A stretch of 64,000 nt of DNA from Alphaproteobacteria bacterium (GCA_009779135.1 WREW01000001.1:784-64783); one strand, 5' to 3'; positions 1 to 16,084 are shown, counted from the stretch's first letter. The notes: generated by a model from the letters alone, not told the origin. A program made the numbers and translations.

Positions 1-1860
1 GCCGCCGGACGCTCGCCTGTCGTCCCCGTCGGCGCAATCATGCTGTTGGTCGCCGCCGACATATCAAACACGGAGCCCGTCGTTATGCTTGTCGAACCCA
101 GCGCCGCCGCTGAACCAAAAATATTCCCGCTTGTCCGGCTGTCGCCCGTAACATAAAGCCCTGTCCCTGTCACCCGCAAACGCTCAGTCCCCGCGATAGA
201 CACCTGCACCTGCGAGGCCGCATCCGAATACAACCCTGTCGTCACATCATCCGCGCGGCTCAAATAAGTCTGCGTTGCGCTCGTCCCCAAATAGAACTCC
301 GCATCATTCGGACTTAGCGTATCCCAGTTCGGCGGTGATCCCTGATACACCTCAAGCCGGTTAAGTGTCGTATTATAGCGCAGCATGCCTTCAACAGGCG
401 CCGCCGGACGCTGCCCTGTCGTACCAAGCGGCGCAATCATGCTGTTGGTCGCCGCCGACATATCAAATACGGAGCCTACAGTTACGCTTGTCGAACCCAA
501 AGCAGCATTCGAGGCAAACATGCTTCCCGTTGCCTGACTATTGCCTATAATATACGCCCCCGTAGCGCTCACCCGCAGCCGCTCCGTCCCCGCAATCGCC
601 ACCTGCACCTGCGAGGCCGCATCAGAGTACAAACCCGTCGTCTCATCATCTTCACGACTTAAATAAGTCTGTGTCGCGCTTGTCCCAAGATAAAACTCCG
701 CGTCATTCGGGCTTAGCGTATCCCATTCCGGCGGATCCCCTTGATAAACCTCGAGCCGGTTAAGAGTCGTATTATACCGCAGCATACCCTCAACAGGCGC
801 CGCAGGCCTCTCGCCCGTCGTCCCTGTCGGCGCAATCATGCTGTTGGTCGCCGCCGACATATCAAACACAGAACCCGCTGTCACACTTGTCGAACCCAGA
901 GCCGCCGCCGAACCAAAAATATTCCCCGTAACGTAAGCGCCTGTCCCCGTCACGCGCAGCCGCTCGGTTCCCGCAATCGCCACCTGCACCCGTTCCGCCG
1001 CGTCCGAGTACAAACCTGTCGTTTCATCATCCTGACGGCTCAGATAAGTTTGCGTCGCGCTTGTGCCGAGATAAAACTCCGCATCATTCGGGCTTAGCGT
1101 ATCCCATTCCGGCGGAAATCCTTGATACACTTCAAGTCTATTGAGTGTTGTGTTATACCGCAGCATACCCGCAACAGGCGCCGCAGGCCTCTCACCCGTC
1201 GTCCCTGTCGGCGCAATCATGGAGTTTGTCGCCGCAGACATATCAAATACAGAGCCAACCGTTATGCTTGTCGAGCCCAAAGCTGCCGCCGCGCCGAAGA
1301 TATTCCCGCCGACATACGCACCAGCCCCCGTCACCCGCAGCCGCTCCGTCCCCGCAATCGCCACCTGCACCTGCGAGGCCGCATCTGAATAAAGGCCCGT
1401 TGTTACATCATCTTCACGGCTCAAATAAGTCTGTGTCGCGCTTGTGCCAAGATAAAATGTTGCGTCATTCGGGCTTAGAGTCTCCCAGCTCGGCGGGAAT
1501 CCTTGATAGGCTTCAAGCCGGTTAAGTGTCGTATTATAGCGCAGCATGCCTTCAACAGGCGCCGCAGGGCGCTGCCCTGTTGTACCAAGCGGCGCAATCA
1601 TGCTGTTGGTCGCCGCCGACATATCAAATACGGAACCGGTCGTTATGCTTGTCGAGCCCAAAGCCGCCGCTGCGCCAAAGATACTGCCGCTTGTCAGGCT
1701 GTCACCATCAACATAAAGGCCGTCTGCGCTCACCCGCAGCCGCTCAACACCAGCGGAAGCAACACTCACCTGTCCCGAGGCGGCAGAGAACAAACCTGTC
1801 GTAGATTCACCCTTGCGGTACGGATTAGGCACGGTCGCGCTTTCGCCTAAGAAAACATTG
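1..1860 (-). repeat. Coding tandem repeat, about 5 units of 381-399 bp (127-133 aa)
   Basis: The anchor GGCGCAATCATG recurs with its final T at 41, 440, 839, 1220 and 1601 (spacings 399, 399, 381, 381). Confidence 0.9.
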
Positions 1861-3971
1861 GCATCAATATCGCCGATAAAGCTGCCGTCAAATGTTCCTG
1901 TGAAATAGCCGGAAAAACCGCCTGCCGCCGTGACGCCGCCCTCAAAAGCGGCATTGCCTGTGGCACGGTCAATAATCAAAGCCGTATGGGCGCTGCCATC
2001 ATCAAGGTAGCGCGTAAGTCTGTAATTCGATCCGGTATCGCTGCCGCCTTCCGGCGTTTCATCCGCGCCCGCAGCCCAGCGCATCTGATCCGTCCCCGTT
2101 GCATATTGCAAATCACGATAAGTCGCGGCAGGCCCCGAAATGCGCAGAGACCCGTCATGAACCTGCAATTTTGCCCCGGGCGTGGCTGTCCCGATTCCGA
2201 CATCACCGGCCTTGTTGATAATCATGCGCAAAAGGCTGGCCGTATAGAATAAGAGACCGCCATCAGGGTCGTTTGATGTTCCGATGGCCTGCCCTTCACC
2301 ATCCGAGATAAAATCAGGCGGATTCGCGCTCCCGCCCGTCACAAGGCCTGTGGTATCAACATCGACACTGTAATAACGTCCGGCTGTTACAATGTTCTGA
2401 AGTTTTTGCGGCGCAATCGAACGGTCGGCAATGCGACCCATATTAAGATAGGACGAACCGCCCGTATCGCCGGAGAACAAAGTATTCAAAGCGCCTGTTT
2501 CCGTATCCGCGCCCGTTCCGCCCTTGACCACAGGAACAATGCCGATAATGTTGCCGGCTTTAACGCTTCCGGCTTCACCTGTGATGTTTACATCAATCGT
2601 GCCGTCACCGGTCAGGCCCAGAAGACTCCATGCCGTCGTTTGATCGCTTGCGAGGAAAAGCTGCTCACCCAAAGCACCGGCGCCAAGGTCCTGACGAACC
2701 GTAGGCGCATCATTGGCGTAAAAAACATTGCGCCCGAACGAACCCGCGCCCAGAGAATTAAGCGCGCTGTCCGTATCCGTAGATGTGAAAACGCCCTTCC
2801 CGATATTACCGGCCCCCAGAGCGCCCAAAGCCTCATCCGTCGAACCGGCGACAAAAACTGAATCACCGATCGAACCGGAACCCAAAGTCTGCCTTCCATC
2901 AGAAGCGGTCGGCGCTGTAAATAACGCTTTACCCACAGCGCTTGCGCCCAAAGCATCCTGCGCGGTGTCGGTCGTGTTCGAAAAGAAAACATTTTTCCCG
3001 ACAGAGCCCGCGCCCAAAGCATCCACAGCCTGACTTGTCGAACCTGATGTAAAGACGGCATCACCGACAGAGCCTGCGCCCAGATTAACGCGCGCGCCGA
3101 CGCTGTTGCTCGCACCCGTGCCGCCGCTTCCAACGCCAAGCGGAGTAGAAAGATTTATGTTACCAAATGACGCTATGCCGGAAACATTGATGCCTTGCGC
3201 TGAAATCGTGCCGTCATCGCCGATCAAAACTTTAGAGCCTGTCTGGCCATATTCGATAAAAGTACCCTGATCCTGCCAGATCGCAGCCCGTTGAATAGCC
3301 GCGCCGACCGACAAGGATTGCATCTGATCGTCACCGCGCGCCGTTTCATCATTACAGCTTGTTTCAAGCCGTCCGTTGGCGCCGGCGGTAATAATACGGA
3401 AAGCGGGCGAATCCGGCGCAGCGCGTGCATTCTCCCAGCGACAATATATATAAAACCGTCCCCACGGATCTAAAACCTTCATGCTGGCCGCAGCTACAAA
3501 AACACCGGCTTCAAACGCATCGCTGCCGCTCAACGCCAGACCGTAATCAACGGGAAGCCGCGCGATATCATCCTCCGTCACGGATTCAAAAGATTGAAGT
3601 TTGATAGGTGCCGCTTCACAATCTTCACTTCGCTCAGCACTTCCGGGAGGGCAGAAAGTCCTTTGATCCTGACTTAAAACAGAAGTGGCCGCCAGCGTCG
3701 TCATGCTGGCCGCCATATCGGTTTTAGCCATGCTGGTGTTGGAAACATTAATGCCGCTGCGTAAAACCTGGCTGTAGCCACTGAATAAAACACCGGCGAC
3801 AACACCGGCCAAAACCAAAAGATACAAAACCGGAGCAACAGCAAAACCGGCTTGTTTATTGTTTATTTCACCCGAAAAAACGCGCGCGGAAATACAAGAG
3901 TTTTTACGATGTTCTTTTTCAAAACACCAAACTCTTGTCTTGCGACAGAAAAGTTTTAAGAGGTCATGCAT
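1..3971 (-). CDS. Giant putative fibre adhesin with prepilin/pseudopilin-like N-terminus, at least 1323 aa, 3' end beyond the window (absent from ORF track)
   Basis: Manual translation from ATG at 3971 (RBS GAGGGAG) stays in frame to position 3. Contains KQAG|FAVAPVLYLLVLAGVVAGVLF, LDPWGRFYIY, IITAGANGRLET, PLGVGSGGTGA..ARVNLG, GDVGIGTATPGAKLQV and tandem PxGTTGxRPAAPVxGMLRYNTTLNRLExYQG units. Confidence 0.85.
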   Translation of the reverse strand, partial: MHDLLKLFCRKTRVWCFEKEHRKNSCISARVFSGEINNKQAGFAVAPVLYLLVLAGVVAGVLFSGYSQVLRSGINVSNTSMAKTDMAASMTTLAATSVLSQDQRTFCPPGSAERSEDCEAAPIKLQSFESVTEDDIARLPVDYGLALSGSDAFEAGVFVAAASMKVLDPWGRFYIYCRWENARAAPDSPAFRIITAGANGRLETSCNDETARGDDQMQSLSVGAAIQRAAIWQDQGTFIEYGQTGSKVLIGDDGTISAQGINVSGIASFGNINLSTPLGVGSGGTGASNSVGARVNLGAGSVGDAVFTSGSTSQAVDALGAGSVGKNVFFSNTTDTAQDALGASAVGKALFTAPTASDGRQTLGSGSIGDSVFVAGSTDEALGALGAGNIGKGVFTSTDTDSALNSLGAGSFGRNVFYANDAPTVRQDLGAGALGEQLFLASDQTTAWSLLGLTGDGTIDVNITGEAGSVKAGNIIGIVPVVKGGTGADTETGALNTLFSGDTGGSSYLNMGRIADRSIAPQKLQNIVTAGRYYSVDVDTTGLVTGGSANPPDFISDGEGQAIGTSNDPDGGLLFYTASLLRMIINKAGDVGIGTATPGAKLQVHDGSLRISGPAATYRDLQYATGTDQMRWAAGADETPEGGSDTGSNYRLTRYLDDGSAHTALIIDRATGNAAFEGGVTAAGGFSGYFTGTFDGSFIGDIDANVFLGESATVPNPYRKGESTTGLFSAASGQVSVASAGVERLRVSADGLYVDGDSLTSGSIFGAAAALGSTSITTGSVFDMSAATNSMIAPLGTTGQRPAAPVEGMLRYNTTLNRLEAYQGFPPSWETLSPNDATFYLGTSATQTYLSREDDVTTGLYSDAASQVQVAIAGTERLRVTGAGAYVGGNIFGAAAALGSTSITVGSVFDMSAATNSMIAPTGTTGERPAAPVAGMLRYNTTLNRLEVYQGFPPEWDTLSPNDAEFYLGTSATQTYLSRQDDETTGLYSDAAERVQVAIAGTERLRVTGTGAYVTGNIFGSAAALGSTSVTAGSVFDMSAATNSMIAPTGTTGERPAAPVEGMLRYNTTLNRLEVYQGDPPEWDTLSPNDAEFYLGTSATQTYLSREDDETTGLYSDAASQVQVAIAGTERLRVSATGAYIIGNSQATGSMFASNAALGSTSVTVGSVFDMSAATNSMIAPLGTTGQRPAAPVEGMLRYNTTLNRLEVYQGSPPNWDTLSPNDAEFYLGTSATQTYLSRADDVTTGLYSDAASQVQVSIAGTERLRVTGTGLYVTGDSRTSGNIFGSAAALGSTSITTGSVFDMSAATNSMIAPTGTTGERPA
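2622..3083 (-). repeat. Seven 22-aa (66-bp) coding repeats, consensus LGAGSxGxxxF
   Basis: Units include LGAGSVGDAVFTSGSTSQAVDA, LGAGSVGKNVFFSNTTDTAQDA, LGASAVGKALFTAPTASDGRQT and LGAGALGEQLFLASDQTTAWSL; 462 bp = 7 x 66. Confidence 0.85.
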
Positions 3972-7708: not shown

Positions 7709-10087
7709 CTACGTCTCTTTCCCGCCCAGCCCCTTATTGATTTTCTCGGCCATATTTTCGAGATAAGCCGACAAATCCTCAGGAAGCTTGAGTTTGCTGA
7801 CATCCTCGCCTTCATCCTCAAGCTCCACTTGCGGCACGATGGCTGTGTCAATATCATGCGGCACATAGCCGCGCGGAATCTCAACATCGCCAAGCGAACT
7901 GCCCTCGGCGCTTTCTTGGGCTTTGGCCGCTTGAGCCGGAGGCTCAACAACAGCTTCTTCCGTAAACTCTTCATCCTGCCATGATGCTGTCACAGGGCGC
8001 GCGCTTTTGGGTTTTTCTGTTTTGACCTGATCTTGCTCTTCCTCCACATCAATTATTTTTTGCGGCGTTTCGCCGATAACTTGAGGAAGCCCGCCGACAC
8101 TTATCATACCGGCCTGCGTCATATCCAGCCCCTCCTGCTGGCACGCCGCCATGGTGCGCGCGACAAAAGCAACCTCCTGCGGCGTTTTTGCCGCCGGTGC
8201 CGCAGAAAGCGCCCGCCAGTCGGGATCATTCAAGCGGGCCGCAACTTCCGTGATGGCCCGCTCACGCCGCAAAGTCAAAGGCGTTGTCGGCGGCACAGGC
8301 AAAAGCTTGTGAACGCGCAAAGCGCCGACCTTCTCCGCCACGGCATAAAACATGCGCGCGCGCGCAAGCCATTCGGAGAAATAAAGATGCACCTCGCCCT
8401 CGCGCTGGTTGCGCAGATGGTCATAATCCGCGCGCACGCGAGGCGTGGCCAAAGAGGCCCCAAGATTGTCAACAAACGGATTGGTCAGGAACATGCCCGC
8501 CATTGACTCGGGCTTGGCGGCAAAGCTTGTGGATTCCATCACAAAGTTTGTCCCCGTATGATCCATAAAGAACTTTTTCGTATCGCCCGGATCTTCAAGC
8601 TTGCCGAAGATTTTAAGGTTACAGTTGGCCAGAATGGAATCCGCTTCCTGCTTGATGCGCTTTTGCATCGAAGGAAGATCTTGCGCGGCAAAAATCAAAG
8701 AAAAGCCCAAAGACCGCGCCTGCGCCGCCATCACAGCCATGCCGGGCGCGGTGTAATAACCGACCTCGTCAAACACGGCCATAAAGGAAGATTGTGAACG
8801 GGTCTGCTTGCTTCCAATCGCGTTTTCCCAGCTTCCCTCAACCGTGTTGCCAAGCGTGGCGCCCATCATGCCTTTAAGGCTGGCCACAACAATCTTGCCG
8901 AGATTTGCCGCTTCATCGCCTGATTTTTCCAAAGCAGGAATAAGACAGACAAGAATGCGGCGGTTGAGCACAATATCCAAAACATCCACATCCGCAAGCT
9001 GCGCCTTGAAGATATAGCCATATTCATCCGCCAGCGATTGCAAGGAGCGCGTAAACTGCATGGACAGATAACCATGCTGCTGGCGCGCAACCTGAAGATC
9101 ATACATGGGCTGGTCGGCTGTCGGCGGACGCTCATTGCCTTCATCATCAAACGCCGCGTCAATATAGCCCGGCAGCGTGCGCAAATAGCCCTCAAGCGCC
9201 TTGACGATACGCTCAGGCAAAGAAGGATCGCGCGAAAGGCGGATAATGGCGGGAAGCTCGATATAATCACGCAAAGTGCCGACATCCAGAAGGAGTCCTG
9301 TCTTGTCGCGCTTCCATGTCAGCGCCGGCATTAAAGCGCCCATCAGCGCCACAGCGCGCTCTTTCCACATGGCGTTGTCGCCGCCGGCATCAGGCATCAA
9401 AGAAACGACCATATTGGTCAGATAAGATGCCGAACCATTGGAAAACGGGTTCATCGTATTGGACGCCGCGCCGCTGTCCGAGTTTGCCGTCATATAGTTC
9501 AAAACAAGAAGGTCATCATCCCGCCCGAACCGCCGCGCAAGCGCAAAAAGCGACGCCCATAAATCCGTATCCGCCTTGCCGTCAATATAAACAAAGCCAG
9601 ATCCCCAAGTCAGCGCATTCACAACAAGAGATTTCAACCCTTCCGTTTTGCCCGAGCCTGTTGTGCCCAGAAAAAGAATATGGGTGCGCGCATCCGTGTT
9701 GGTCAGCCAAAGCTCCCGCCCGTGATCGGGGTGACCGGCTTCATCCACATTGCCGATATATAAAATACCGTCCGACTTTCCCGCGCCCGGACTGCCTGGT
9801 TTGGGATTATGCGGATCAGTCAAAGGCGCTGCGGCCCGAGGCATTTTAAACGGCAAAACAACCGGCGTTTTCAAAACCCATTTGGCATAAAGATAATAAA
9901 AAAGCATCACGATATCCGAGGCAACATGAACCTCCGGCATCGTGAACAACAACATGATCCAGATAAGCGAAACCGTTACCAGTGTCGTGGGGTCATTCCA
10001 ATATTCGGCAATGCGAACGGACGCAGGCCGGATATCACGCAAAATCTGGCTGCGGTAATTGACGGTGTGTTTGCTAAGAAGAACCAT
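7709..10087 (-). CDS. icmO: Type IVB secretion coupling protein IcmO/DotL (TrbC-like)
   Basis: N-terminal TM segments, Walker A GTTGSGKT, YIDGKAD, MWKERA, Walker B FDEVGYY, AQARSLGFS, and an acidic C-terminal tail. Confidence 0.88.
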   Translation of the reverse strand: MVLLSKHTVNYRSQILRDIRPASVRIAEYWNDPTTLVTVSLIWIMLLFTMPEVHVASDIVMLFYYLYAKWVLKTPVVLPFKMPRAAAPLTDPHNPKPGSPGAGKSDGILYIGNVDEAGHPDHGRELWLTNTDARTHILFLGTTGSGKTEGLKSLVVNALTWGSGFVYIDGKADTDLWASLFALARRFGRDDDLLVLNYMTANSDSGAASNTMNPFSNGSASYLTNMVVSLMPDAGGDNAMWKERAVALMGALMPALTWKRDKTGLLLDVGTLRDYIELPAIIRLSRDPSLPERIVKALEGYLRTLPGYIDAAFDDEGNERPPTADQPMYDLQVARQQHGYLSMQFTRSLQSLADEYGYIFKAQLADVDVLDIVLNRRILVCLIPALEKSGDEAANLGKIVVASLKGMMGATLGNTVEGSWENAIGSKQTRSQSSFMAVFDEVGYYTAPGMAVMAAQARSLGFSLIFAAQDLPSMQKRIKQEADSILANCNLKIFGKLEDPGDTKKFFMDHTGTNFVMESTSFAAKPESMAGMFLTNPFVDNLGASLATPRVRADYDHLRNQREGEVHLYFSEWLARARMFYAVAEKVGALRVHKLLPVPPTTPLTLRRERAITEVAARLNDPDWRALSAAPAAKTPQEVAFVARTMAACQQEGLDMTQAGMISVGGLPQVIGETPQKIIDVEEEQDQVKTEKPKSARPVTASWQDEEFTEEAVVEPPAQAAKAQESAEGSSLGDVEIPRGYVPHDIDTAIVPQVELEDEGEDVSKLKLPEDLSAYLENMAEKINKGLGGKET

Positions 10088-10107
10088 ACGCCGCTATCCC
10101 TCTGCCG

Positions 10108-10620
10108 TCACGGTCTTGACGGCGCCAAAAAATCATCCGCAGACACCGGCTGCCCCGTCGGAAGCCCAAGCGCCCGCTGAACCGTTGCTTTTGCGGGCTT
10201 CACAGACTCGTTTTTGCTCCCGATCATCACCGCGCCCGTAAAGACAAAAAACACCAGCAAACCGCTTAACAAAAGCAACAAAAAAGAAGACAGGGCGCGA
10301 TGGATTCTTCTGCCCCACCGCTTGCCGCTTGTCGAACCCCTCAGCAACGCCCTTTGTATGGCGCGCAAAGCCTCTTCAGCTTCAAACTTTTCATCAAAAT
10401 AAGCGCGGGCGACAAAATGGTTTTTTTCATCCGCATAGCCAAGGGCCCATCCCTCGCCTTGCGGCGCAAGCATCAAAGTCAGATGCTGAACTTCACCCAG
10501 ATTGACAAACCAGCTTTGTGCCATTTTGGGGCCGCGCGTCATCACAAGGAGACCGGCATGGCGCCCCCAACAACGGACTTTTGCTTTAAAAGAGACTGTT
10601 TTCTCCGTGTGCGTCAGCAT
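10108..10620 (-). CDS. Hypothetical single-pass membrane protein between icmP and icmO
   Basis: 170 aa, RBS GGGAGA, hydrophobic helix near the C-terminus, ends GLPTGQPVSADDFL; tight operon spacing. Confidence 0.7.
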   Translation of the reverse strand: MLTHTEKTVSFKAKVRCWGRHAGLLVMTRGPKMAQSWFVNLGEVQHLTLMLAPQGEGWALGYADEKNHFVARAYFDEKFEAEEALRAIQRALLRGSTSGKRWGRRIHRALSSFLLLLLSGLLVFFVFTGAVMIGSKNESVKPAKATVQRALGLPTGQPVSADDFLAPSRP

Positions 10621-10644
10621 GTTGTCTTCTCCCTTCTCCTCATT

Positions 10645-11880
10645 TTACGTCCGCTTGGCACCTTGGCGCGGCGGCACGACAACCGGTTCATCGCCGCTCA
10701 TATACACATTAAGCGTGATAATGGCTGTATCAAGTCGCGGCGTCGGCAAGGCTTTTTCAGCAGCCGTCTCAGCCATAAAATGCGCCACGGCACCCGCCCC
10801 TTCCGTATGAAAAGAGCGGCGACCGAGATTGTTCAAAGAATACCAAAGTTCACGATCCACGCCGCGCAGCCATAAAAACTGCGCCGAAGCCAGAACGCCG
10901 CCCATAAACCGCGCCCATTTAAGAAGCCCTAAAAGTGCCGTGGTGCGATAAGCATGGCGTGCCACAACCTCAAGCGCCTTGCCGCCCACTTCGGGATCTT
11001 TCAGAATCGCGCGCGCTTTGGATACAATCTCAGCCGAAGGCTTAAACCCCGTTTTGTCCGTCCAGAATGTGGAGATCTGGCCTAAAAACTCATCACTTTC
11101 ATCACGTTTCTGCACGCCTTTAAGAGCAAAAGCCGCTGCCAGCAACTGCATGTGAACAGGCAACCCCGCAAACCCGTTCCAGCGCGGGCCAAGCTGCGCA
11201 AGAAAGGCCCGCCGCGCCGCTTCGCGGTCAGGCACGCCATTCACAACCGCGATGCGATGATAGGACAGCCATTCTTCCGGCGCAAACGCCTCAGCAAAAA
11301 GAGGCGTCTTCTCCGGCATGGGCGACCCAAGAATGCGCGCGCTGGCTTTGGCCGGATTAAAGTTCGCAACCGGCGAAATGACCGGCCATATTTTGGCCTG
11401 CGCGCGGATAAAGGTCTCAAGATTAAAGCGCGTTTTAAACAAATTGCGTGGCGACATGAATGTGCCATAGACCGCAACAAGCAAACAAACAGGCGCAATA
11501 AGCCAGCGCGTATATTGTCCGATATAAAGACTAATAACCTTCATACTGGAGCCCGTTATATTGTAAAAATCGTAAGCCATGCCCTGCCGCGCAAATACCA
11601 CAAAACTTTCCGTGCCAAAGCACCGATAAGCCGCCTGCGCCACTTCCTCGCTGACCCTGTTCTCATTTCCTATCTGGGCGATGTAAAGCCAATGCGCGCA
11701 GTCTTTGGCGCGCGTGTCAACGGGCGCCAGCATCCAAAGCTCAATCAAACGCAGCCAGCGCAAGGCTTCAAGGATTTCGACATTCCAATAATGCCAGATT
11801 GCCCATCCTATCCCGAACAGGAATGCCAGCATGATGAAAAAAAGGGCTGAAGCATCTTCTTGTTGAGGGCTGTTCGCCAT
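10645..11880 (-). CDS. icmP: Type IVB secretion protein IcmP/DotM (TrbA-like)
   Basis: N-terminal TM helices, WPVISPV, PEEW, FLAQLGPRW, GVLASAQFLWLRGVDRELWYSLNNLGR and EGAGAVAHF. Start trimmed to MANSP. Confidence 0.88.
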   Translation of the reverse strand: MANSPQQEDASALFFIMLAFLFGIGWAIWHYWNVEILEALRWLRLIELWMLAPVDTRAKDCAHWLYIAQIGNENRVSEEVAQAAYRCFGTESFVVFARQGMAYDFYNITGSSMKVISLYIGQYTRWLIAPVCLLVAVYGTFMSPRNLFKTRFNLETFIRAQAKIWPVISPVANFNPAKASARILGSPMPEKTPLFAEAFAPEEWLSYHRIAVVNGVPDREAARRAFLAQLGPRWNGFAGLPVHMQLLAAAFALKGVQKRDESDEFLGQISTFWTDKTGFKPSAEIVSKARAILKDPEVGGKALEVVARHAYRTTALLGLLKWARFMGGVLASAQFLWLRGVDRELWYSLNNLGRRSFHTEGAGAVAHFMAETAAEKALPTPRLDTAIITLNVYMSGDEPVVVPPRQGAKRT

Positions 11881-12047
11881 AGATCTATATCCTGCCGTTG
11901 CAAGCCTCATAGCAGAGCCTACCCAAGCCTTGCCATGAAAAGCCTTCAAAAAAGGTTAAAAGAGAATGCCCCCGCCAAATACTTGCAGCAATCTTTTTAT
12001 CACAAAAGACCCTTGGAAAAAAGCGCCGGATTAACCATGAAAAGCCC

Positions 12048-15032
12048 TTATTTTTCCGAAAAATAGAGTCTATGGGCATTATTGACCAGCTCCTGCGCCA
12101 ATTCCTTGATAATAAAGCTTGTGGAGGCGGTTTCAATTTCCCCCTTCGCGGTACGGTCCGAAATGCGGCTTTTGATTTCATTCCGCACCGAGCCGGTCGG
12201 GTAAAACTGGGCCAAAATCCGTCTGGCCATAGGCGCACCCAAAGCCTCATAAAGGCGTGAGCGTAGAGCCACATCCTCCCCCGAGGTGGAAAGCGCCCAA
12301 AGCTCAACAGGCCCTAAAGTGTTGACCAGCCACTGCTCATAGCGGCCTTCCGTTGTGTTGAACACCAGCAAAAACGGCGCGCCATAACTGCGAGGCCCCA
12401 TCAACTGATACCGCATCGCCCATTGCGCCTTTTCGGAAAGGCTGAACAGTTCCGCCGTGGTCGTGATCGCGCGGTCTGAAGCCGCCGAGCCGCAAATCCA
12501 GATGCCTGTGGCCAGATCGATCATGTCGTTGCTGAAATCCTCCAAAAGCTGCGAAGCAAGAACAATCTCCACTTTCCATTTACGGCCTTCGCGCACGTCA
12601 CGCATGACCTGCGCGCGCACGCCCGGGGTTTTGCTGGTGCGGTGAAACTCATCATAACAAAGTTTTTTGGGGCTTTCTTGCATATCACGCAAACGATTCT
12701 CGTGATAGGGGCGGTATTTTTCAGGCATCATGCGCAAAGAGTCCTGCCCAAGCCACCACGCGCGAACCAGCACATGGCGCGCAAGCATATACATCACCGC
12801 CGTCTGGCGATCCGCGCTGTCATCGCCTTGGGGCGCAACATCCTGCAAATCAACCGCCGCGATGCGTGTCGCGCCAAGGTCAAAACGTGTGATTGAGGCC
12901 AAAATAGGAAACTCCCGCACAGCCGAGGCGATCATACGGTCAAAGGCGTGAATGATGGACTCGGCTGAAGTGCCGATAGAGGTTTCCTCCAAAAGCGCGC
13001 GAATCTGCGGACGACGCGCCGCCGTGACGGCATCCGCCAAAGTCGGCACAGCATGGCGCTGGGCAAGGGTGCAGGCATGAAAATCCCCGATTTCATACAA
13101 AGCATCCACAACATCCCACCAGTAAGGATCGACAGGAAGATGAACATTATATTGTTTGAGAACCTCATCCACCTCAAGCTCGACATTGATGAGGTAGGGC
13201 CGAGGCTCGGCATTGGCGCCGGCATCATCGCGCCAGCGATACATCTCATCCACGCAAAGCCCTACCAGCTGCGCCATGCCGTCATAAGGCATTTTTTGTC
13301 CGGGCGAGGTACAAATCAGCGTTAAAAGCTCAATCAGATAGGCGCGCTCTTCAGGCAGCGGGAAGCGGCATCCGAGCTGTGTATCAAAAGGATTGATGGC
13401 ATATTCAGGCGTCATTTTAAGCTTGAAATGCGTGACCTCATGCCGCCTGTTGACCGGAAGGGCGTCCTTAATCAGAGAAATCAACCCCGACGAAGAGGGG
13501 CCGATATCCAAAATCGCTATATAAGGCAGGCCGCCACGTCCTGTTGACAACACAGTGCCAAGGTTCAGGGTATTAAGCAAAACGGACTTACCCATGCCCG
13601 GCTGCGCAAAAATCAAATCAAACCAAGATGTCGTCAAGCCGCTCCCCGGCTGATAGGGCCAGACGCGCCCATCCGGCGTACGAAAAGTAACAGAGCCTTC
13701 ACGGAAGGGCGAAGATCCTCTCTGCCACGGCAAAAGCTTGATAACCTCCCTAAGCGGCGCCACCGCCGCCGGCGCAGTCGAAGCACAAGCAATGCCCAGC
13801 GCCGAGGAAAGCACCATCTCAAGCGGATCACCTCCCGCTGAAGAAGCCTGACAATAGCCCCAAGCCTCCAAAGCTTGCGTCAAAGTCGCCAAACGCGATT
13901 CCACAAGCTTGCGTTCACGAACAGGCGCGGAGGTGGCAAGTGAAACGCGCAGCCGCACAACAGGCTCGCTCTGCGCCATCTGTTGCAGAACCTTGAACGA
14001 CTCACGAATATCGCGGTTAATCGCGTTCGTCCATGCCAGAATACCGGCGGCAAAAGCCTGAAATGATGTGCTCTGCGCCCCGCCGCTTTCAATCAAAAAA
14101 GAAATACGGAACGGTATCTTCGCGTCACTAATAAGACGCTCAAGAAGCAGGTCAAATGACGAAGGCTCCGCCGGCCCCAAAGTCATATCAAGGCCAGCCC
14201 AGAGCAGCTCGCCGATCTGCACAACCGTGGGCGAAAGCACGGCGGCATCGCTTATGCAAAGCTGGCGGCGCAAAGATGGCCAGAGAATATCCGAAAGATC
14301 ATCTTTATCCTGCGGCGCGCGTGGCCGCAAAGGATCCCCCGGTACACAGGCGCGCCAAGTTTCATTGGACTGCACCGGATACATGCTGCGCCGGCAGGCG
14401 TTAAGCGACTCATGCACATCTAAAAGAGACACCCTCATCTGGAGTTCCCCAAGTGACGCAAGCATGGCCGTGACATAGCTTTTATGCTTTATGCGCAAAG
14501 GATCGAACACAGAGGTAGGATTTTGTGAATCCGTGGCGCGCGGCCATTTTTGACTTTTCTGCGAACGCGCAGCTTCCTTCAGATCGCTCTTGGTCACCGC
14601 GCCCGGGCGCGTCCAAAGCACAAAATAGATTTCTTCATGCGCCAGCCAATTAAGATAATGCTTCTGCCGGTTCGACAAAAGATCATCAAGATCAAGATCC
14701 ATGGCTTCGGCGGCGCTTGCGGTATTGCGCATGGCACGTTGCAGATCAAGCGCAGCCATCCCAGGATCGCGCATGAAATAAACCTGCAAGGCATAGCCCG
14801 GCCGGTCAAACCGCGCGCCGAGTTTAGTGGTAGCCATATCAACAAGCTGGACATAGTCCCGAGGGCCGATAATAAGCCTGTTGCCATGCACCTGAACAAA
14901 AGAAATCAAAGAGCCGTCACGCGCAACAAGCGTGTAATTATCATCCGCCGTTTCAAGCTGAACAAAAGATTCGATAGGCTGCTTGCCGAGCATCAGGATT
15001 GAAGCCAGAACACTATCGATAATATTGAGCAT
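12048..15032 (-). CDS. icmB: Type IVB secretion ATPase IcmB/DotO (VirB4/TraU-like)
   Basis: VLWTRP, Walker A AQPGMGKS, ILDIGPSSSGLI, INPFDTQLGCR, Walker B CYDEFHR, REGRKW, LGPVELWALST. Start trimmed to MLNII. Confidence 0.9.
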   Translation of the reverse strand: MLNIIDSVLASILMLGKQPIESFVQLETADDNYTLVARDGSLISFVQVHGNRLIIGPRDYVQLVDMATTKLGARFDRPGYALQVYFMRDPGMAALDLQRAMRNTASAAEAMDLDLDDLLSNRQKHYLNWLAHEEIYFVLWTRPGAVTKSDLKEAARSQKSQKWPRATDSQNPTSVFDPLRIKHKSYVTAMLASLGELQMRVSLLDVHESLNACRRSMYPVQSNETWRACVPGDPLRPRAPQDKDDLSDILWPSLRRQLCISDAAVLSPTVVQIGELLWAGLDMTLGPAEPSSFDLLLERLISDAKIPFRISFLIESGGAQSTSFQAFAAGILAWTNAINRDIRESFKVLQQMAQSEPVVRLRVSLATSAPVRERKLVESRLATLTQALEAWGYCQASSAGGDPLEMVLSSALGIACASTAPAAVAPLREVIKLLPWQRGSSPFREGSVTFRTPDGRVWPYQPGSGLTTSWFDLIFAQPGMGKSVLLNTLNLGTVLSTGRGGLPYIAILDIGPSSSGLISLIKDALPVNRRHEVTHFKLKMTPEYAINPFDTQLGCRFPLPEERAYLIELLTLICTSPGQKMPYDGMAQLVGLCVDEMYRWRDDAGANAEPRPYLINVELEVDEVLKQYNVHLPVDPYWWDVVDALYEIGDFHACTLAQRHAVPTLADAVTAARRPQIRALLEETSIGTSAESIIHAFDRMIASAVREFPILASITRFDLGATRIAAVDLQDVAPQGDDSADRQTAVMYMLARHVLVRAWWLGQDSLRMMPEKYRPYHENRLRDMQESPKKLCYDEFHRTSKTPGVRAQVMRDVREGRKWKVEIVLASQLLEDFSNDMIDLATGIWICGSAASDRAITTTAELFSLSEKAQWAMRYQLMGPRSYGAPFLLVFNTTEGRYEQWLVNTLGPVELWALSTSGEDVALRSRLYEALGAPMARRILAQFYPTGSVRNEIKSRISDRTAKGEIETASTSFIIKELAQELVNNAHRLYFSEK

Positions 15033-15195
15033 AGGAAGATTCCTGACAAGCGGCTCAAAGGGTAGCGAAGAAAACAAAACTGCACCTTCAAGAAGGCGCA
15101 GGGCAAAGATAGCCTCAAAAGCCTCACAAACGCAAGCCTTGGAACCCCTCTTTTCGGGCAAGGTTGCCCTTTTTCATGCGTGGCCGTTACGAAGC

Positions 15196-15232
15196 AAAAA
15201 CAAAAAGGCCGCAATGTCTGCACATTGCGGCC
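15196..15232 (-). terminator. Intrinsic terminator after pal
   Basis: GGCCGCAATGT-N4-ACATTGCGGCC 11-bp stem followed by a T-rich run on the minus strand. Confidence 0.8.
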
Positions 15233-15260
15233 CTTTTGAACTTAAAAAGCTTGAAACGGC

Positions 15261-15773
15261 TTATTCAACAATCACCGAAACAGCGCGGCGATTTTGCGCC
15301 CAGGCAGCCTCATTGCTGCCGGGAACGGCCGGAACTTCCTTGCCGTAGCTTACGGTGCGCAGACGCCCGCCATCAACACCGGCTGCAACCAGATAGTTGC
15401 GCGCCGCTGTGGCACGGCGTTCACCTAAAGCAAGGTTGTATTCGCGTGTGCCGCGTTCGTCCGTGTGGCCTTCAACTGTGACATTGACGGACGGATATTT
15501 GTTAAGCCAAGCCGCCTGACGATCCAGCGTGGCGCGAGCTTCCGCTGAAAGGTCATAACGATCAAACCCAAAGAAAACGCGATCGCCGACATTAACAACC
15601 AGATCATCTTGGCTGCCGGGACGAGCTGTCCCCAAACGCTGCGCATCCATACCGGCTGCGCCATCATAAGCGGACGCGCCTGAGCTTCCTGCTGTACCCT
15701 GATCTTCGCTGGATGTACCGCAAGCTGAAACCAAAACGAGCGCCGCCATAAGGCATAGATATTTTTTAAACAT
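15261..15773 (-). CDS. pal: Peptidoglycan-associated lipoprotein Pal
   Basis: Lipobox VSAC, GDRVFFGFD, EGHTDERGTREYNLALGERRA, SYGKE, QNRRA. Confidence 0.95.
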   Translation of the reverse strand: MFKKYLCLMAALVLVSACGTSSEDQGTAGSSGASAYDGAAGMDAQRLGTARPGSQDDLVVNVGDRVFFGFDRYDLSAEARATLDRQAAWLNKYPSVNVTVEGHTDERGTREYNLALGERRATAARNYLVAAGVDGGRLRTVSYGKEVPAVPGSNEAAWAQNRRAVSVIVE

Positions 15774-16084
15774 GACTTCCCCCTCGTGTGAACCTTTGGC
15801 GGTTAAATCAACTTTCTGTTTGTCAGAAGGTTGCTCTTGGCCAAGTTGATGAACAAAACTTATCAGCCGCGTCCAACCTGAACGCGACAAACCCCTATTG
15901 TCCTGAAAACAAACCGCTTTTACCGCGAATCGATTCGCCTTCAAAAACAACTTCATTTTCAAACTAGCCATTCTATCTTGATGAATCAAGATGGCTTACC
16001 GCCCGCGCCCCACCTTTTTCAACGAACAGCTGGGCCGTGGCGCGGGCGCAACAGGTCTGAAAACACACATGAAAATGTCTTATT

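Follow-up and report, generated by a model that had tools for sequence, protein, structure and literature searches.

A gene at the edge of the stretch studied here encodes a giant modular protein, which we read as a homotrimeric tip pilin of the CofB/TcpB kind that displays a phage-derived fibre. We put the probability of this reading at about one in two. It draws on the protein's architecture, the pilin fold of its head, its trimeric stalk, a Peptidase_S74 domain, the presence of pilus machinery in the genome and a phyletic association with one small pilin, each established computationally. Together these suggest that these bacteria bear a phage-style receptor-binding fibre at the end of a filament resembling a pilus. 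The stretch, hereafter the window, comprises 64,000 nucleotides of an Alphaproteobacteria bacterium and corresponds to C1:784-64783, where C1 is a contig of the assembly.

The giant gene is read on the minus strand from an ATG at window position 3971 to base 3 without interruption (1323 codons, 3'-open), and runs on for 261 codons past the window to the first base of C1, giving a stop-free frame of 1584 codons. This ATG is the sole in-frame ATG, GTG or TTG upstream of the codon for Gly42, and AAGAGG sits 5 nt upstream of it. The frame is far above chance, since its N-terminal 270 aa alone match 177 protein clusters at E<=0.001, of which 97 match at E<=1e-30. The uninterrupted minus-strand frame of at least 1323 codons described in the first-pass annotation is therefore confirmed, and all of the motifs listed there occur in the translation: the 42-aa leader ending in KQAG|F, Pro at +5, DPWG, IITAGANG..GDD, and the GGTGA-type and other motifs. 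KQAG| is followed by FAVAPVLYLLVLAGVVAGVLFSGY. A repeat script finds exactly seven 22-aa units, the number first described. The larger units noted earlier are also present, with GTTGxRPA at aa 796, 923, 1050, 1183, 1316, 1449 and 1576 (the first five in the window), but they are 127 or 133 aa long rather than a flat 130. The features are collected in Table 1.

Table 1. Features of the giant fibre gene within the window.
Feature	Window position	Strand	Basis or remark
Giant fibre gene, in-window part (codons 1-1323)	3..3971	-	continues to contig end
Hydrophilic basic leader, aa 1-42, ends Gly42; putative prepilin-peptidase site G|F	3846..3971	-	sequence, homologue alignment
Alpha-1 helix, aa 43-96; first ~23 residues hydrophobic (FAVAPVLYLLVLAGVVAGVLFSG); Pro at +5	3684..3845	-	AF2 model
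Head globular beta domain, aa 97-229; DPWGRFYIYCRWEN, IITAGANG..CND..GDD	3285..3683	-	AF2 model, VIA-align
DPWG, aa 168-171	3459-3470	-	translation
Neck, aa 230-297, predicted start of three-chain intertwining; contains GGTGASNSVGARVNLG	3081..3284	-	three-copy prediction
Seven tandem 22-aa repeats, aa 298-451; predicted trimeric stalk	2619..3080	-	repeat script, three-copy prediction
Middle stalk, aa 452-795; GGTGADTETGALNTL, GDVGIGTATPGAKLQV, first phage-like segments	1587..2618	-	translation, PHROG
Tandem 127/133-aa units from aa 796: GTTGxRPA..GMLRYN..FYLGTSATQTYLSR..TTGLYSDAAS; phage virion/tail-fibre-like	3..1586	-	repeat script, PHROG

A PHROG search with the giant returned 24 families at E<=0.1, headed by phrog_2803 (4.5e-34), and the majority of them hit four stretches of the protein. 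Four of the matches are annotated, three as tail-fibre families and one as a virion structural protein. Matches begin in the middle stalk, where phrog_2415 aligns with aa 775-827. Such strong matches in the repeat units, and the contig break inside the repeats, would suit an assembly artefact, or a tail-fibre gene from a prophage or of phage origin, in which the N-terminus is hydrophobic by chance. That explanation is largely refuted by the gene's neighbours, by the position of the head and by conservation across the order, and we give it only a very slight probability. The neighbours in the window (an LppC-like gene, rsmI, rpsD and ndk among them) are housekeeping and Dot/Icm genes rather than phage genes, and synteny with LppC and RsmI is kept in two related loci. 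In all 177 clusters the head family occupies the N-terminus, and the head-plus-fibre architecture is present in 57 of the 71 genomes surveyed in the order, representing 26 of its 28 genera.

The head (aa 43-229) was modelled with AF2 at a pLDDT of 84.1 and a pTM of 0.73. The model has a helix of 52 residues (aa 45-96, pLDDT mostly >90) followed by a beta domain, and the head models confidently as the lollipop fold of type IV pilins. In a wide VIA-align search the top 21 rows of 21, at Z 4.0-5.6, all belong to type IV pilins or pseudopilins and are headed by EpsG (4lw9; Z 5.6, rmsd 2.9, 85 aligned residues, 22% identity), with even the best Z values (5-5.6) under VIA-align's own safe level of 8. 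Foldseek with the head model gave no match at E<=0.001. The pilin-type head proposed in the first-pass annotation thus stands as a predicted structure, but with modest Z values and with no pilin or GspG sequence model behind it: the Pfam and NCBIfam pilin models (N_methyl PF07963/TIGR02532 and T2SSG PF08334) do not match the giant at E<=1, and a PF07963 scan of its own genome found five other proteins, the giant not among them. T2SSG matches one of 18 head-family members (E 0.3), and the alpha-1 segment gives a weak profile match to Geobacter PilA-N (E 0.095). The head motifs DPWG..Y.Y and ..G.DG....GDD are, we presume, GspG-like, and the best structural match is to the same family. This is a likeness only, as the head differs from GspG in lacking a T2SSG match, in having Pro for Glu at +5, in its larger size and in its fusion to a fibre.

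Conservation around the N-terminus was assessed by aligning 102 homologues on the helix that follows. All 102 have Gly(-1), 100 have Phe(+1) and 93 have Pro(+5), while the columns upstream of Gly(-1) are variable (3.3-3.9 bits), so that conservation sets in sharply at the glycine. From this pattern we infer cleavage of the leader after Gly42. The giant has Pro in place of the usual Glu at +5; Glu5 is normally required for pilin assembly, and tip pseudopilins such as GspK likewise do without it.

The giant might instead be a membrane-anchored fibre and no filament subunit, with an uncleaved signal-anchor and a degenerate, relic pilin domain. Three helices would then hold the trimer in the inner membrane, and the fibre would either span the envelope via some channel or act in the periplasm. 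The missing Glu5, the lack of any matching pilin sequence model and the length of the leader (42 aa, long for a prepilin) speak for this, as does gene linkage: a pilus-machinery homologue lies near the giant in 0 of 45 related loci (flanks up to 10 kb, often less). All of these, with the modest Z values, are also counted against the tip-pilin reading. The positive-inside topology at both ends would suit a plain bitopic anchor. We nevertheless judge a simple anchor unlikely. A near-invariant Gly(-1)|Phe(+1) preceded directly by variable columns is characteristic of a processing site rather than of a plain anchor, the model is that of a complete pilin with its 52-residue alpha-1 helix, and an adhesin of the phage receptor-binding type has no obvious target in the periplasm. 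The small pilin encoded with a secretin, an ATPase and a platform protein in one operon moreover has the same N-terminal signature and co-occurs with the giant.

Three copies of aa 43-370 were predicted together. The score, which may owe something to phage fibres memorised by the model, is 0.85 (median of 0.79, 0.85 and 0.85) against 0.00 for the best of three controls. In a calibration made with two copies rather than three, the 0.85 mark was reached by 20 of 30 proteins whose solved structure is a pair of identical chains and by 1 of 23 whose solved structure is a single chain. The three-copy runs have at least 93% of their contacts in common and a pLDDT of at least 84, and the confident inter-chain interface is limited to aa ~230-365, with the lowest-error contacts at aa 293-341. 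The stalk accordingly models as an intertwined homotrimer from aa ~230, in its proximal part (aa 230-365), as expected of the fibre proposed at first pass, and one fibre would therefore bear three pilin heads.

The C-terminus of the giant is probably encoded at the end of another contig, C5. The fragment there is 713 aa long and 5'-open, and comprises repeat units and a coiled coil, closing with a hydrophobic stretch and then RGRKRAA. It scores 47.8 bits with PF13884 (Peptidase_S74; cut-off 22), and has the Ser-Lys motif SDxxxK in the form SDERVK. We assign it to the giant gene because it aligns with the last ~630 aa of P0004 (E 1e-89), a 2452-aa orthologue from the same genus that has both ends and the same head, and because the genome (G000) holds one head gene only. 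The join itself is not seen in the assembly, as the ends of C1 and C5 do not overlap. Full-length orthologues of the giant also carry a C-terminal Peptidase_S74, so the C-terminal S74 chaperone looked for since the first pass is found both on the C5 fragment and in complete relatives. A modular protein of at least ~2300 aa per chain is the best explanation of what the gene encodes.

The prepilin peptidase and secretion or pilus genes looked for alongside the giant are present in its genome. The peptidase is encoded on contig C26 (Peptidase_A24, 45.4 bits, plus A24_N_bact), and there are six T2SSE ATPases, two secretins and T2SSF platform proteins, with PilT-sized ATPases also present. Pilus-type machines number three. 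One is an operon on contig C4 that runs secretin, ASH-domain protein, GspE- or PilB-like ATPase, platform protein, two unknown proteins and a small pilin, an order kept in 3/3 other genomes examined. The N-terminus of this last product, the Pro+5 pilin, reads G|IAIGP.LF and is invariant in 22/22 aligned sequences. Its model is pilin-like, with Z 6.4 to C. difficile PilA1 and, across 149 residues, Z 6.2 to the ETEC type IVb pilus. Compared by hhalign, its N-terminus and that of the giant family match with an E of 5.6e-5 and a probability of 66%. The two have a G|xAxxP N-terminus in common (G|FAxAP in the giant), while the pilins of the other systems have G|FTL.E.

An R64-like cluster beside the Dot/Icm genes encodes a TcpQ-like protein, a secretin, PilO, an ATPase, a platform protein and two PilS-like pilins. 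On C26, a 441-aa protein is a canonical prepilin with an S74 domain of its own, and pilin-S74 fibres with Glu5 therefore also exist in this genome. Pilins with the canonical Glu5 and two pilus systems beyond the C4 operon are present as well, and another machine may therefore serve the giant. A pilin-headed fibre could be built by the R64-type type IVb thin-pilus cluster, or a T2SS-like pseudopilus could export it by piston action, as substrate or cap, before its release. The R64-like cluster and the C26 prepilin are in keeping with a machine other than the Pro+5 operon, as are the giant head's top structural match, the T2SS pseudopilin EpsG, and the C4 ATPase, whose top NCBIfam match is GspE, below its cut-off. 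We think such a machine improbable, however, given that G|FAxAP agrees with the N-terminus of the Pro+5 pilin but differs from G|FTL.E in the pilins of the other systems, and that co-occurrence at the class level, surveyed for the Pro+5 pilin, is with that pilin.

The host is a small-genome relative of predatory Micavibrio-like bacteria. Across its order, 56 of the 57 head-bearing genomes have the Pro+5 pilin, and the exception, G070, is 62% complete. The head is missing from 14 of the 71 genomes, and 13 of these retain the Pro+5 pilin, so the machine does not depend on the fibre, a point against the tip-pilin reading. The only >90%-complete genome without the Pro+5 pilin, G017 (99% complete), has no head either. 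In a class sample of 301 genomes, the pilin occurs in 6/6 with the head and, with weaker matches, in 5 of the other 295. Among the genomes sampled, the giant is found almost only together with the Pro+5 pilin.

Tip incorporation, the machine used, export, surface display and the binding of prey or another target are steps that we infer, and for a tip pilin they could run as follows. The newly made giant would have a basic leader in the cytoplasm, the alpha-1N membrane helix of a pilin, a fibre of great length in the periplasm, the S74 chaperone and a final membrane helix. With membrane helices at both termini, the protein would thus be held at each end by the inner membrane during folding of the fibre in the periplasm. 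The S74 domain would drive trimerisation from the C-terminus and, by self-cleavage at SDxxxK, would then release the distal tip that binds the receptor; the leader would be cut off after Gly42 by the prepilin peptidase of this genome. A type IV filament, most likely the product of the conserved C4-type Pro+5 operon, would start from the three pilin heads at the stalk base, which would serve as its tip subunits. Pushed out through the secretin, the fibre would be shown on the end of this filament, and its mosaic, phage-like tip may bind the surface of another cell, which the Micavibrio-like lineage suggests would be prey.

CofB and TcpB, minor pilins of type IVb systems (ETEC CFA/III and Vibrio cholerae TCP), have an N-terminal pilin domain followed by homotrimerising beta-rich domains, as described in PMC6048534 and mentioned in PMC8179133. 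Their trimer sits at the pilus tip, starts assembly and carries the binding function (PMC6048534). The giant resembles them in architecture, with a pilin domain, a predicted trimerising region and three free heads. It differs from CofB, a protein of ~500 aa encoded in the pilus operon, in its size of at least ~2300 aa and its location away from machinery genes, and in having a phage-tail-fibre-like stalk, an S74 chaperone, a C-terminal membrane helix and Pro at +5.

Modular pilins, in which a module is grafted on a pilin carrier for display on the filament, are described by Raynaud et al. 2021 (PMC8179133). That paper catalogues an IPR012902-IPR030392 (pilin-S74) architecture, exactly that of the 441-aa C26 protein, and quotes 860 residues for its largest modular pilin. 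It takes S74 as a 'predicted peptidase' and does not assign it a chaperone role for a phage-like trimeric fibre. The giant is without the IPR012902/N_methyl signature and would therefore be missed by such a survey. Because trimeric tip pilins of the CofB type and pilin-S74 architectures are already published, the 'undescribed system' of the first-pass annotation is too strong. Novelty appears to lie in the giant phage-fibre stalk, in the Pro+5 class of pilin and in its distribution among lineages.

The mosaic adhesive trimer (MAT) fibres of Bdellovibrio bacteriovorus are long, trimeric and phage-related, with mosaic tips (Caulton et al. 2024, PMC10769870). According to that paper, 13/21 end in S74 with SDxxxK, VG..P...L-type capping-loop motifs are described, and the N-terminus is an ordinary signal peptide with a conserved ~130-aa beta-rich domain that has no PDB homologue, the surface anchor being unknown. 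By eye, GDVGIGTATPGAKLQV of the giant resembles the capping-loop motif as given there. The giant belongs to Alphaproteobacteria rather than Bdellovibrio, and its N-terminal module, a pilin-like head, is set apart from that of MAT fibres by the published description; it proposes a concrete anchor where that of MAT, in the same text, is unknown. A broader and more doubtful idea, offered tentatively, is that Micavibrio-like Alphaproteobacteria possess an unrecognised class of type IV filament with Pro+5 subunits, tipped by a homotrimer of giant pilins, each joined to a phage-derived, receptor-binding fibre of thousands of residues that is folded in the periplasm by a membrane-tethered S74 domain and extruded through the secretin, possibly as a retractable prey harpoon. 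If true, a filament with PilT-sized ATPases could recognise prey and reel it in, predators would gain a phage-like, swappable determinant of host range, and the anchoring of MAT-like fibres would be explained for this lineage.

With S74 phage tail fibres and tailspikes the giant shares PF13884 above its cut-off, SDxxxK, phage-family repeats and a predicted trimer. Unlike them it is a cellular, conserved, chromosomal gene product in which a pilin head replaces the tail-attachment domain and a membrane helix follows the chaperone. Relatives of the giant have open frames of up to 9801 aa.

We examined the extent of the giant gene, a minus-strand frame whose product (P0002) begins with a pilin-like head and continues as a long phage-fibre-like stalk. 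The frame runs from an ATG at 3971 to base 3 of the window (1323 codons, no stop) and remains open to the first base of its contig, C1, giving 1584 codons; the window corresponds to C1:784-64783. Codon 1 is the sole canonical start before Gly42 and is preceded by AAGAGG 5 nt upstream. All of the sequence motifs named in the first-pass annotation are present in the translation and appear in the table, with the other loci considered here. PF26696.1 is listed in the precomputed annotation of P0002 (3..3971, minus strand) and of several relatives, and is not returned by a Pfam scan of P0002 at E ≤ 1.

Features of the giant gene, its neighbours and the pilus loci of the genome (base positions refer to the window unless a contig or locus is given; aa positions refer to the giant protein)
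Feature	Position	Strand	Description
Leader		minus	42 aa, ending KQAG|F, then FAVAPVLY... with Pro at +5 (translation)
DPWG	aa 168-171; 3459-3470	minus	Motif (translation)
Further motifs			IITAGANG..GDD, GGTGASNSVGARVNLG, GDVGIGTATPGAKLQV (translation)
22-aa repeats	aa 298-451		Seven, exact period
Long units	aa 796 onward		127 or 133 aa
DotL-like coupling protein	7709-10087	minus	Dot/Icm-type group
170-aa ORF		minus	Listed between the DotL-like and DotM genes
DotM	10645-11949	minus	Dot/Icm-type group
1037-aa ORF	12048-15161	minus	Without family match
OmpA-family protein	within 7709-15989	minus	Last of the group
C4 operon	L015:5013-13825	minus	Outside the window; secretin, ASH-domain protein, 588-aa GspE/PilB-like ATPase, platform, 362-aa, 171-aa and 237-aa proteins
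R64-like type IVb thin-pilus cluster	C1:138000-154000 (L016)		Outside the window; TcpQ-like, secretin, PilO, 647-aa ATPase, platform, two PilS-like pilins
441-aa pilin-S74 protein	C26, L012:3050-4375	plus	Outside the window; canonical prepilin N-terminus (RLG|FTLVE), N_methyl 28.1 bits

The break of contig C1 falls within the repeats of the stalk. With the giant protein as tblastn query, the genome yields two places besides the gene itself, the end of contig C5 and the start of contig C23. The C5 end holds a 5'-open frame of 713 aa with two additional repeat units, NxAxG-type beta-helix repeats and a Peptidase_S74 intramolecular chaperone domain (47.8 bits, cut-off 22) with SDERVK, along with a coiled coil and, at the C-terminus, a hydrophobic segment ahead of RGRKRAA. 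The assembly (1.545 Mb in 40 contigs, scored 100% complete with 0.96% contamination) has no contig-end overlaps of 21-127 nt that join C1 to C5 or C23. An intact orthologue of 2452 aa with the same head (P0004) is present in a genome of the same genus, G067, and the C5 fragment aligns with its C-terminal ~630 aa (E 1e-89), near-continuously over the S74 region and the terminal helix. Only one head-encoding gene is found in the genome under study. Because of the orthology with P0004, and not because of the assembly, we infer that the C1 start and the C5 end form a single gene of at least ~2300 codons. On C23 (3-137, minus strand, locus L014), a 45-aa frame opens directly behind an in-frame stop, remains open at the start of the contig and adjoins a rhodanese-like gene. 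Its product corresponds to the end of a fibre repeat unit (..GWTSLD..FLGTSATQTKLSRGDDETTGLYS); the start of a second fibre gene, a silent cassette and an assembly chimera are candidate explanations.

The head comprises aa 43-229, downstream of the leader and a putative prepilin-peptidase site at G42|F43. Residues 1-270 used as a query match 177 clusters at E ≤ 0.001, of which 97 reach E ≤ 1e-30; the matching proteins range from <200 aa (fragments) to 5301 aa, and the match lies at or near the protein N-terminus in nearly all of the best 150 of the 177 clusters. When 102 homologues are anchored on the downstream helix instead of the cleavage site, all 102 have Gly(-1), 100 have Phe(+1) and 93 have Pro(+5). 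Column entropy is 3.3-3.9 bits across the leader and falls to 0 on reaching the Gly. A looser pattern that requires the Gly places the site in 134 of 167 proteins, behind leaders of 6-199 residues (median 25).

The AF2 model of the head (52-sequence alignment, pLDDT 84.1, pTM 0.73) places a beta domain after a helix that spans 45-96. When this model is compared with 48,161 chains by VIA-align, the top 21 rows are all pilins or pseudopilins. EpsG ranks first (4lw9; Z 5.6, rmsd 2.9, 85 aligned residues, 22% identity), and other matches include the ETEC type IVb pilus (Z 5.5), XcpV/W (5.2) and PulG (5.0). None of these reaches the Z of 8 with which the tool is comfortable, and it is therefore the uniformity of the list that carries evidential weight. 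Foldseek against the PDB gives no match at E ≤ 0.001, with EpsG first appearing at rank 31, and the pilin models of Pfam and NCBIfam do not match the head. The family profile has a weak match to Geobacter PilA-N among PDB sequences (E 0.095), aligned exactly at RGF...FSGY; phmmer and profile searches of the same sequences with the head otherwise return one unrelated match only. A Tad-type (TadE/Flp) N-terminus was also considered and dropped, since PF07811 is absent at E ≤ 1 and the C4 operon has a GspE/PilB-like ATPase and a PilC/GspF-like platform.

The repeat units of the giant protein match 24 PHROG families at E ≤ 0.1 (best 4.5e-34), mostly in four stretches. Annotation exists for four of these families: three are tail-fibre families and one is a virion structural protein. 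A prophage origin of the gene was rejected on gene context and conservation. Three-copy predictions of aa 43-370, made with an in-house alignment, score 0.85 (runs of 0.79, 0.85 and 0.85), and the best of 3 controls scores 0.00. The score was calibrated with two copies instead of three, and phage fibres memorised by the model may contribute to it. The 0.85 mark is reached by 20/30 proteins solved as same-chain pairs and by 1/23 solved as single chains. The runs have at least 93% of contacts in common and a pLDDT of at least 84. The confident part of the predicted interface is restricted to aa ~230-365, so the stalk would intertwine straight after the head, with the three heads outside the confident interface. 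A trimeric autotransporter was dropped as an alternative because only the long helix aligns to the Hia/AtaA anchors (Z 3.5-3.8) and there is no C-terminal barrel. An xSDxxxK motif lies near the C-terminus in 21 of 166 family proteins, 2 of them apparently spurious; a C-terminal hydrophobic helix is also present in 7 of the 21, so a membrane-tethered chaperone is a feature of one subgroup only.

We surveyed the genome for pilus machinery. It encodes a prepilin peptidase of 259 aa (Peptidase_A24 at 45.4 bits, plus A24_N_bact), and a second A24-like protein is small and below cut-off. Six T2SSE-family ATPases, two secretins and five N_methyl proteins are present; the ATPases besides those of the C4 operon and the R64-type cluster are DotB and three PilT-sized proteins. 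The ATPase of the C4 operon has GspE as its best NCBIfam match (262 bits, below its cut-off). The gene order of this operon recurs unchanged in 3/3 further genomes examined, and these represent each of the order's three families. Its last gene encodes a 237-aa pilin whose leader varies; after the leader, G|IAIGP.LF is invariant (22/22 aligned sequences), and a pair of Cys residues is conserved. The AF2 model of this Pro+5 pilin (pLDDT 79.5, helix 21-77) is closest in structure to C. difficile PilA1 (Z 6.4) and, with 149 residues aligned, to the ETEC type IVb pilus (Z 6.2). Its N-terminus aligns with the family of the giant protein in hhalign over 37 columns (E 5.6e-5, probability 66%); BLASTP of the head against it is not significant, the N-terminal helix being aligned by profile comparison only. 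The C4 operon may represent an undescribed type of type IV filament.

Further pilin-like proteins are encoded elsewhere in the genome. A second small Pro+5 pilin-like protein on contig C7 (L075:1877-2506, minus strand; 209 aa, with a 13-aa leader, MADGIKRFSAQAG|IAIGPILF) is encoded outside any pilus operon. The 441-aa protein of contig C26 is a compact Glu5-type pilin-S74 fibre, and its C-terminus carries Peptidase_S74 (49 bits) with SDERLK and a coiled coil. Its gene is preceded by that of a PilS/bundlin-like pilin (L012:713-1393) and by genes for two small proteins that have a membrane anchor and no family assignment.

Across the order, the head is found in 57/71 genomes and 26/28 genera, the Pro+5 pilin in 69/71 genomes and the 362-aa operon protein in 65/71, tallies that include the unpublished genome G052 and become 56/70, 68/70 and 64/70 without it. 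Thirteen genomes of the order have the pilin and lack the head, and G017 (99% complete) lacks the head, the pilin and the 362-aa protein. Of 301 genomes sampled evenly from the class, 6 carry the head (E ≤ 1e-10), each together with strong Pro+5 pilin matches, and 5 of the 295 head-less genomes have weaker ones; the genomes behind these co-occurrence counts are related and not independent, perhaps four lineages. Outside the family of the genome under study, only 3/298 sampled class genomes have the head. Mosaic fibres and this lineage restriction together give the pattern expected of a host-range determinant. The largest head frame seen, in the two-contig genome G006 (C1:607504-608568 onward), is open for 9801 aa, and the open frames or proteins of other head-bearing relatives reach 3300-5300 aa.

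We propose that the basic leader and the RGRKRAA tail would be cytoplasmic and both hydrophobic helices would lie in the inner membrane, so that the entire fibre would fold in the periplasm. The S74 domain would trimerise the fibre and then cleave itself off, and the prepilin peptidase would cut after Gly42. Self-cleavage and an SDS-resistant trimer have been shown for Bd3182. By analogy with CofB, the three heads could seed a filament as its tip, and the filament would carry the fibre outward through the secretin. At the tip, the absence of Glu5 would also be tolerable, as in GspK. The pilin of the C4 operon also lacks Glu5, which suggests a distinct filament chemistry.

Full-text literature searches, judged at search-result level only, found no description of a pilin-headed phage-fibre protein. 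Raynaud et al. 2021 (PMC8179133) describe modular pilins in 264 architectures, among them IPR012902-IPR030392, in which a pilin is joined to a 'predicted peptidase' (family S74); the 441-aa C26 protein is of this kind. CofB is a homotrimeric tip minor pilin (PMC6048534). For the mosaic adhesive trimer (MAT) fibres of Bdellovibrio, Caulton et al. 2024 (PMC10769870) describe the surface anchor as unknown and bring up an interplay with type IV pili as a possibility; as described there, the N-terminal module of MAT differs from the pilin-like head. According to the 2011 Micavibrio genome paper, the type II system of that genome lacks annotated GspC, G, H and K, a gap that would fit a putative unrecognised Pro+5 pilin.

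The architecture proposed in the first-pass annotation, a phage-type fibre behind a pilin head, survives every computational test that could be run. The giant protein is best filed under a modular, trimeric tip-pilin theme, with putative cleavage, display and target. What is remarkable in it is its size, its phage-derived stalk and S74 chaperone, its restriction to Micavibrio-like lineages, and the Pro+5 signature common to it and a conserved filament operon. To our knowledge, prey recognition by epibiotic and invasive bacterial predators is a largely open question. Because the N-terminus of the fibre is itself a pilin, this family offers a direct, testable link between fibre and type IV pilus. 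If true, the cargo of type IV filaments would extend from tip pilins of ~500 aa to trimeric fibres of thousands of residues. The family also points to a Glu5-less pilin class in a conserved secretin/ATPase/platform operon, which bears on the role of Glu5 that is accepted for filament assembly.

Pilus machinery is next to the giant gene in 0/45 related loci, many of them short, and LppC-like/RsmI neighbours as in the window occur in 2/45. In the window, the giant gene has type IVB secretion genes of the Dot/Icm type nearby (7709-15989, minus strand). The R64-like cluster is located directly upstream of a GcrA-like gene, two copies of DotI/IcmL, DotH/IcmK and a TrbI-like gene, and we take this layout of pilus cluster and Dot/Icm genes on C1 to be reminiscent of IncI plasmids.
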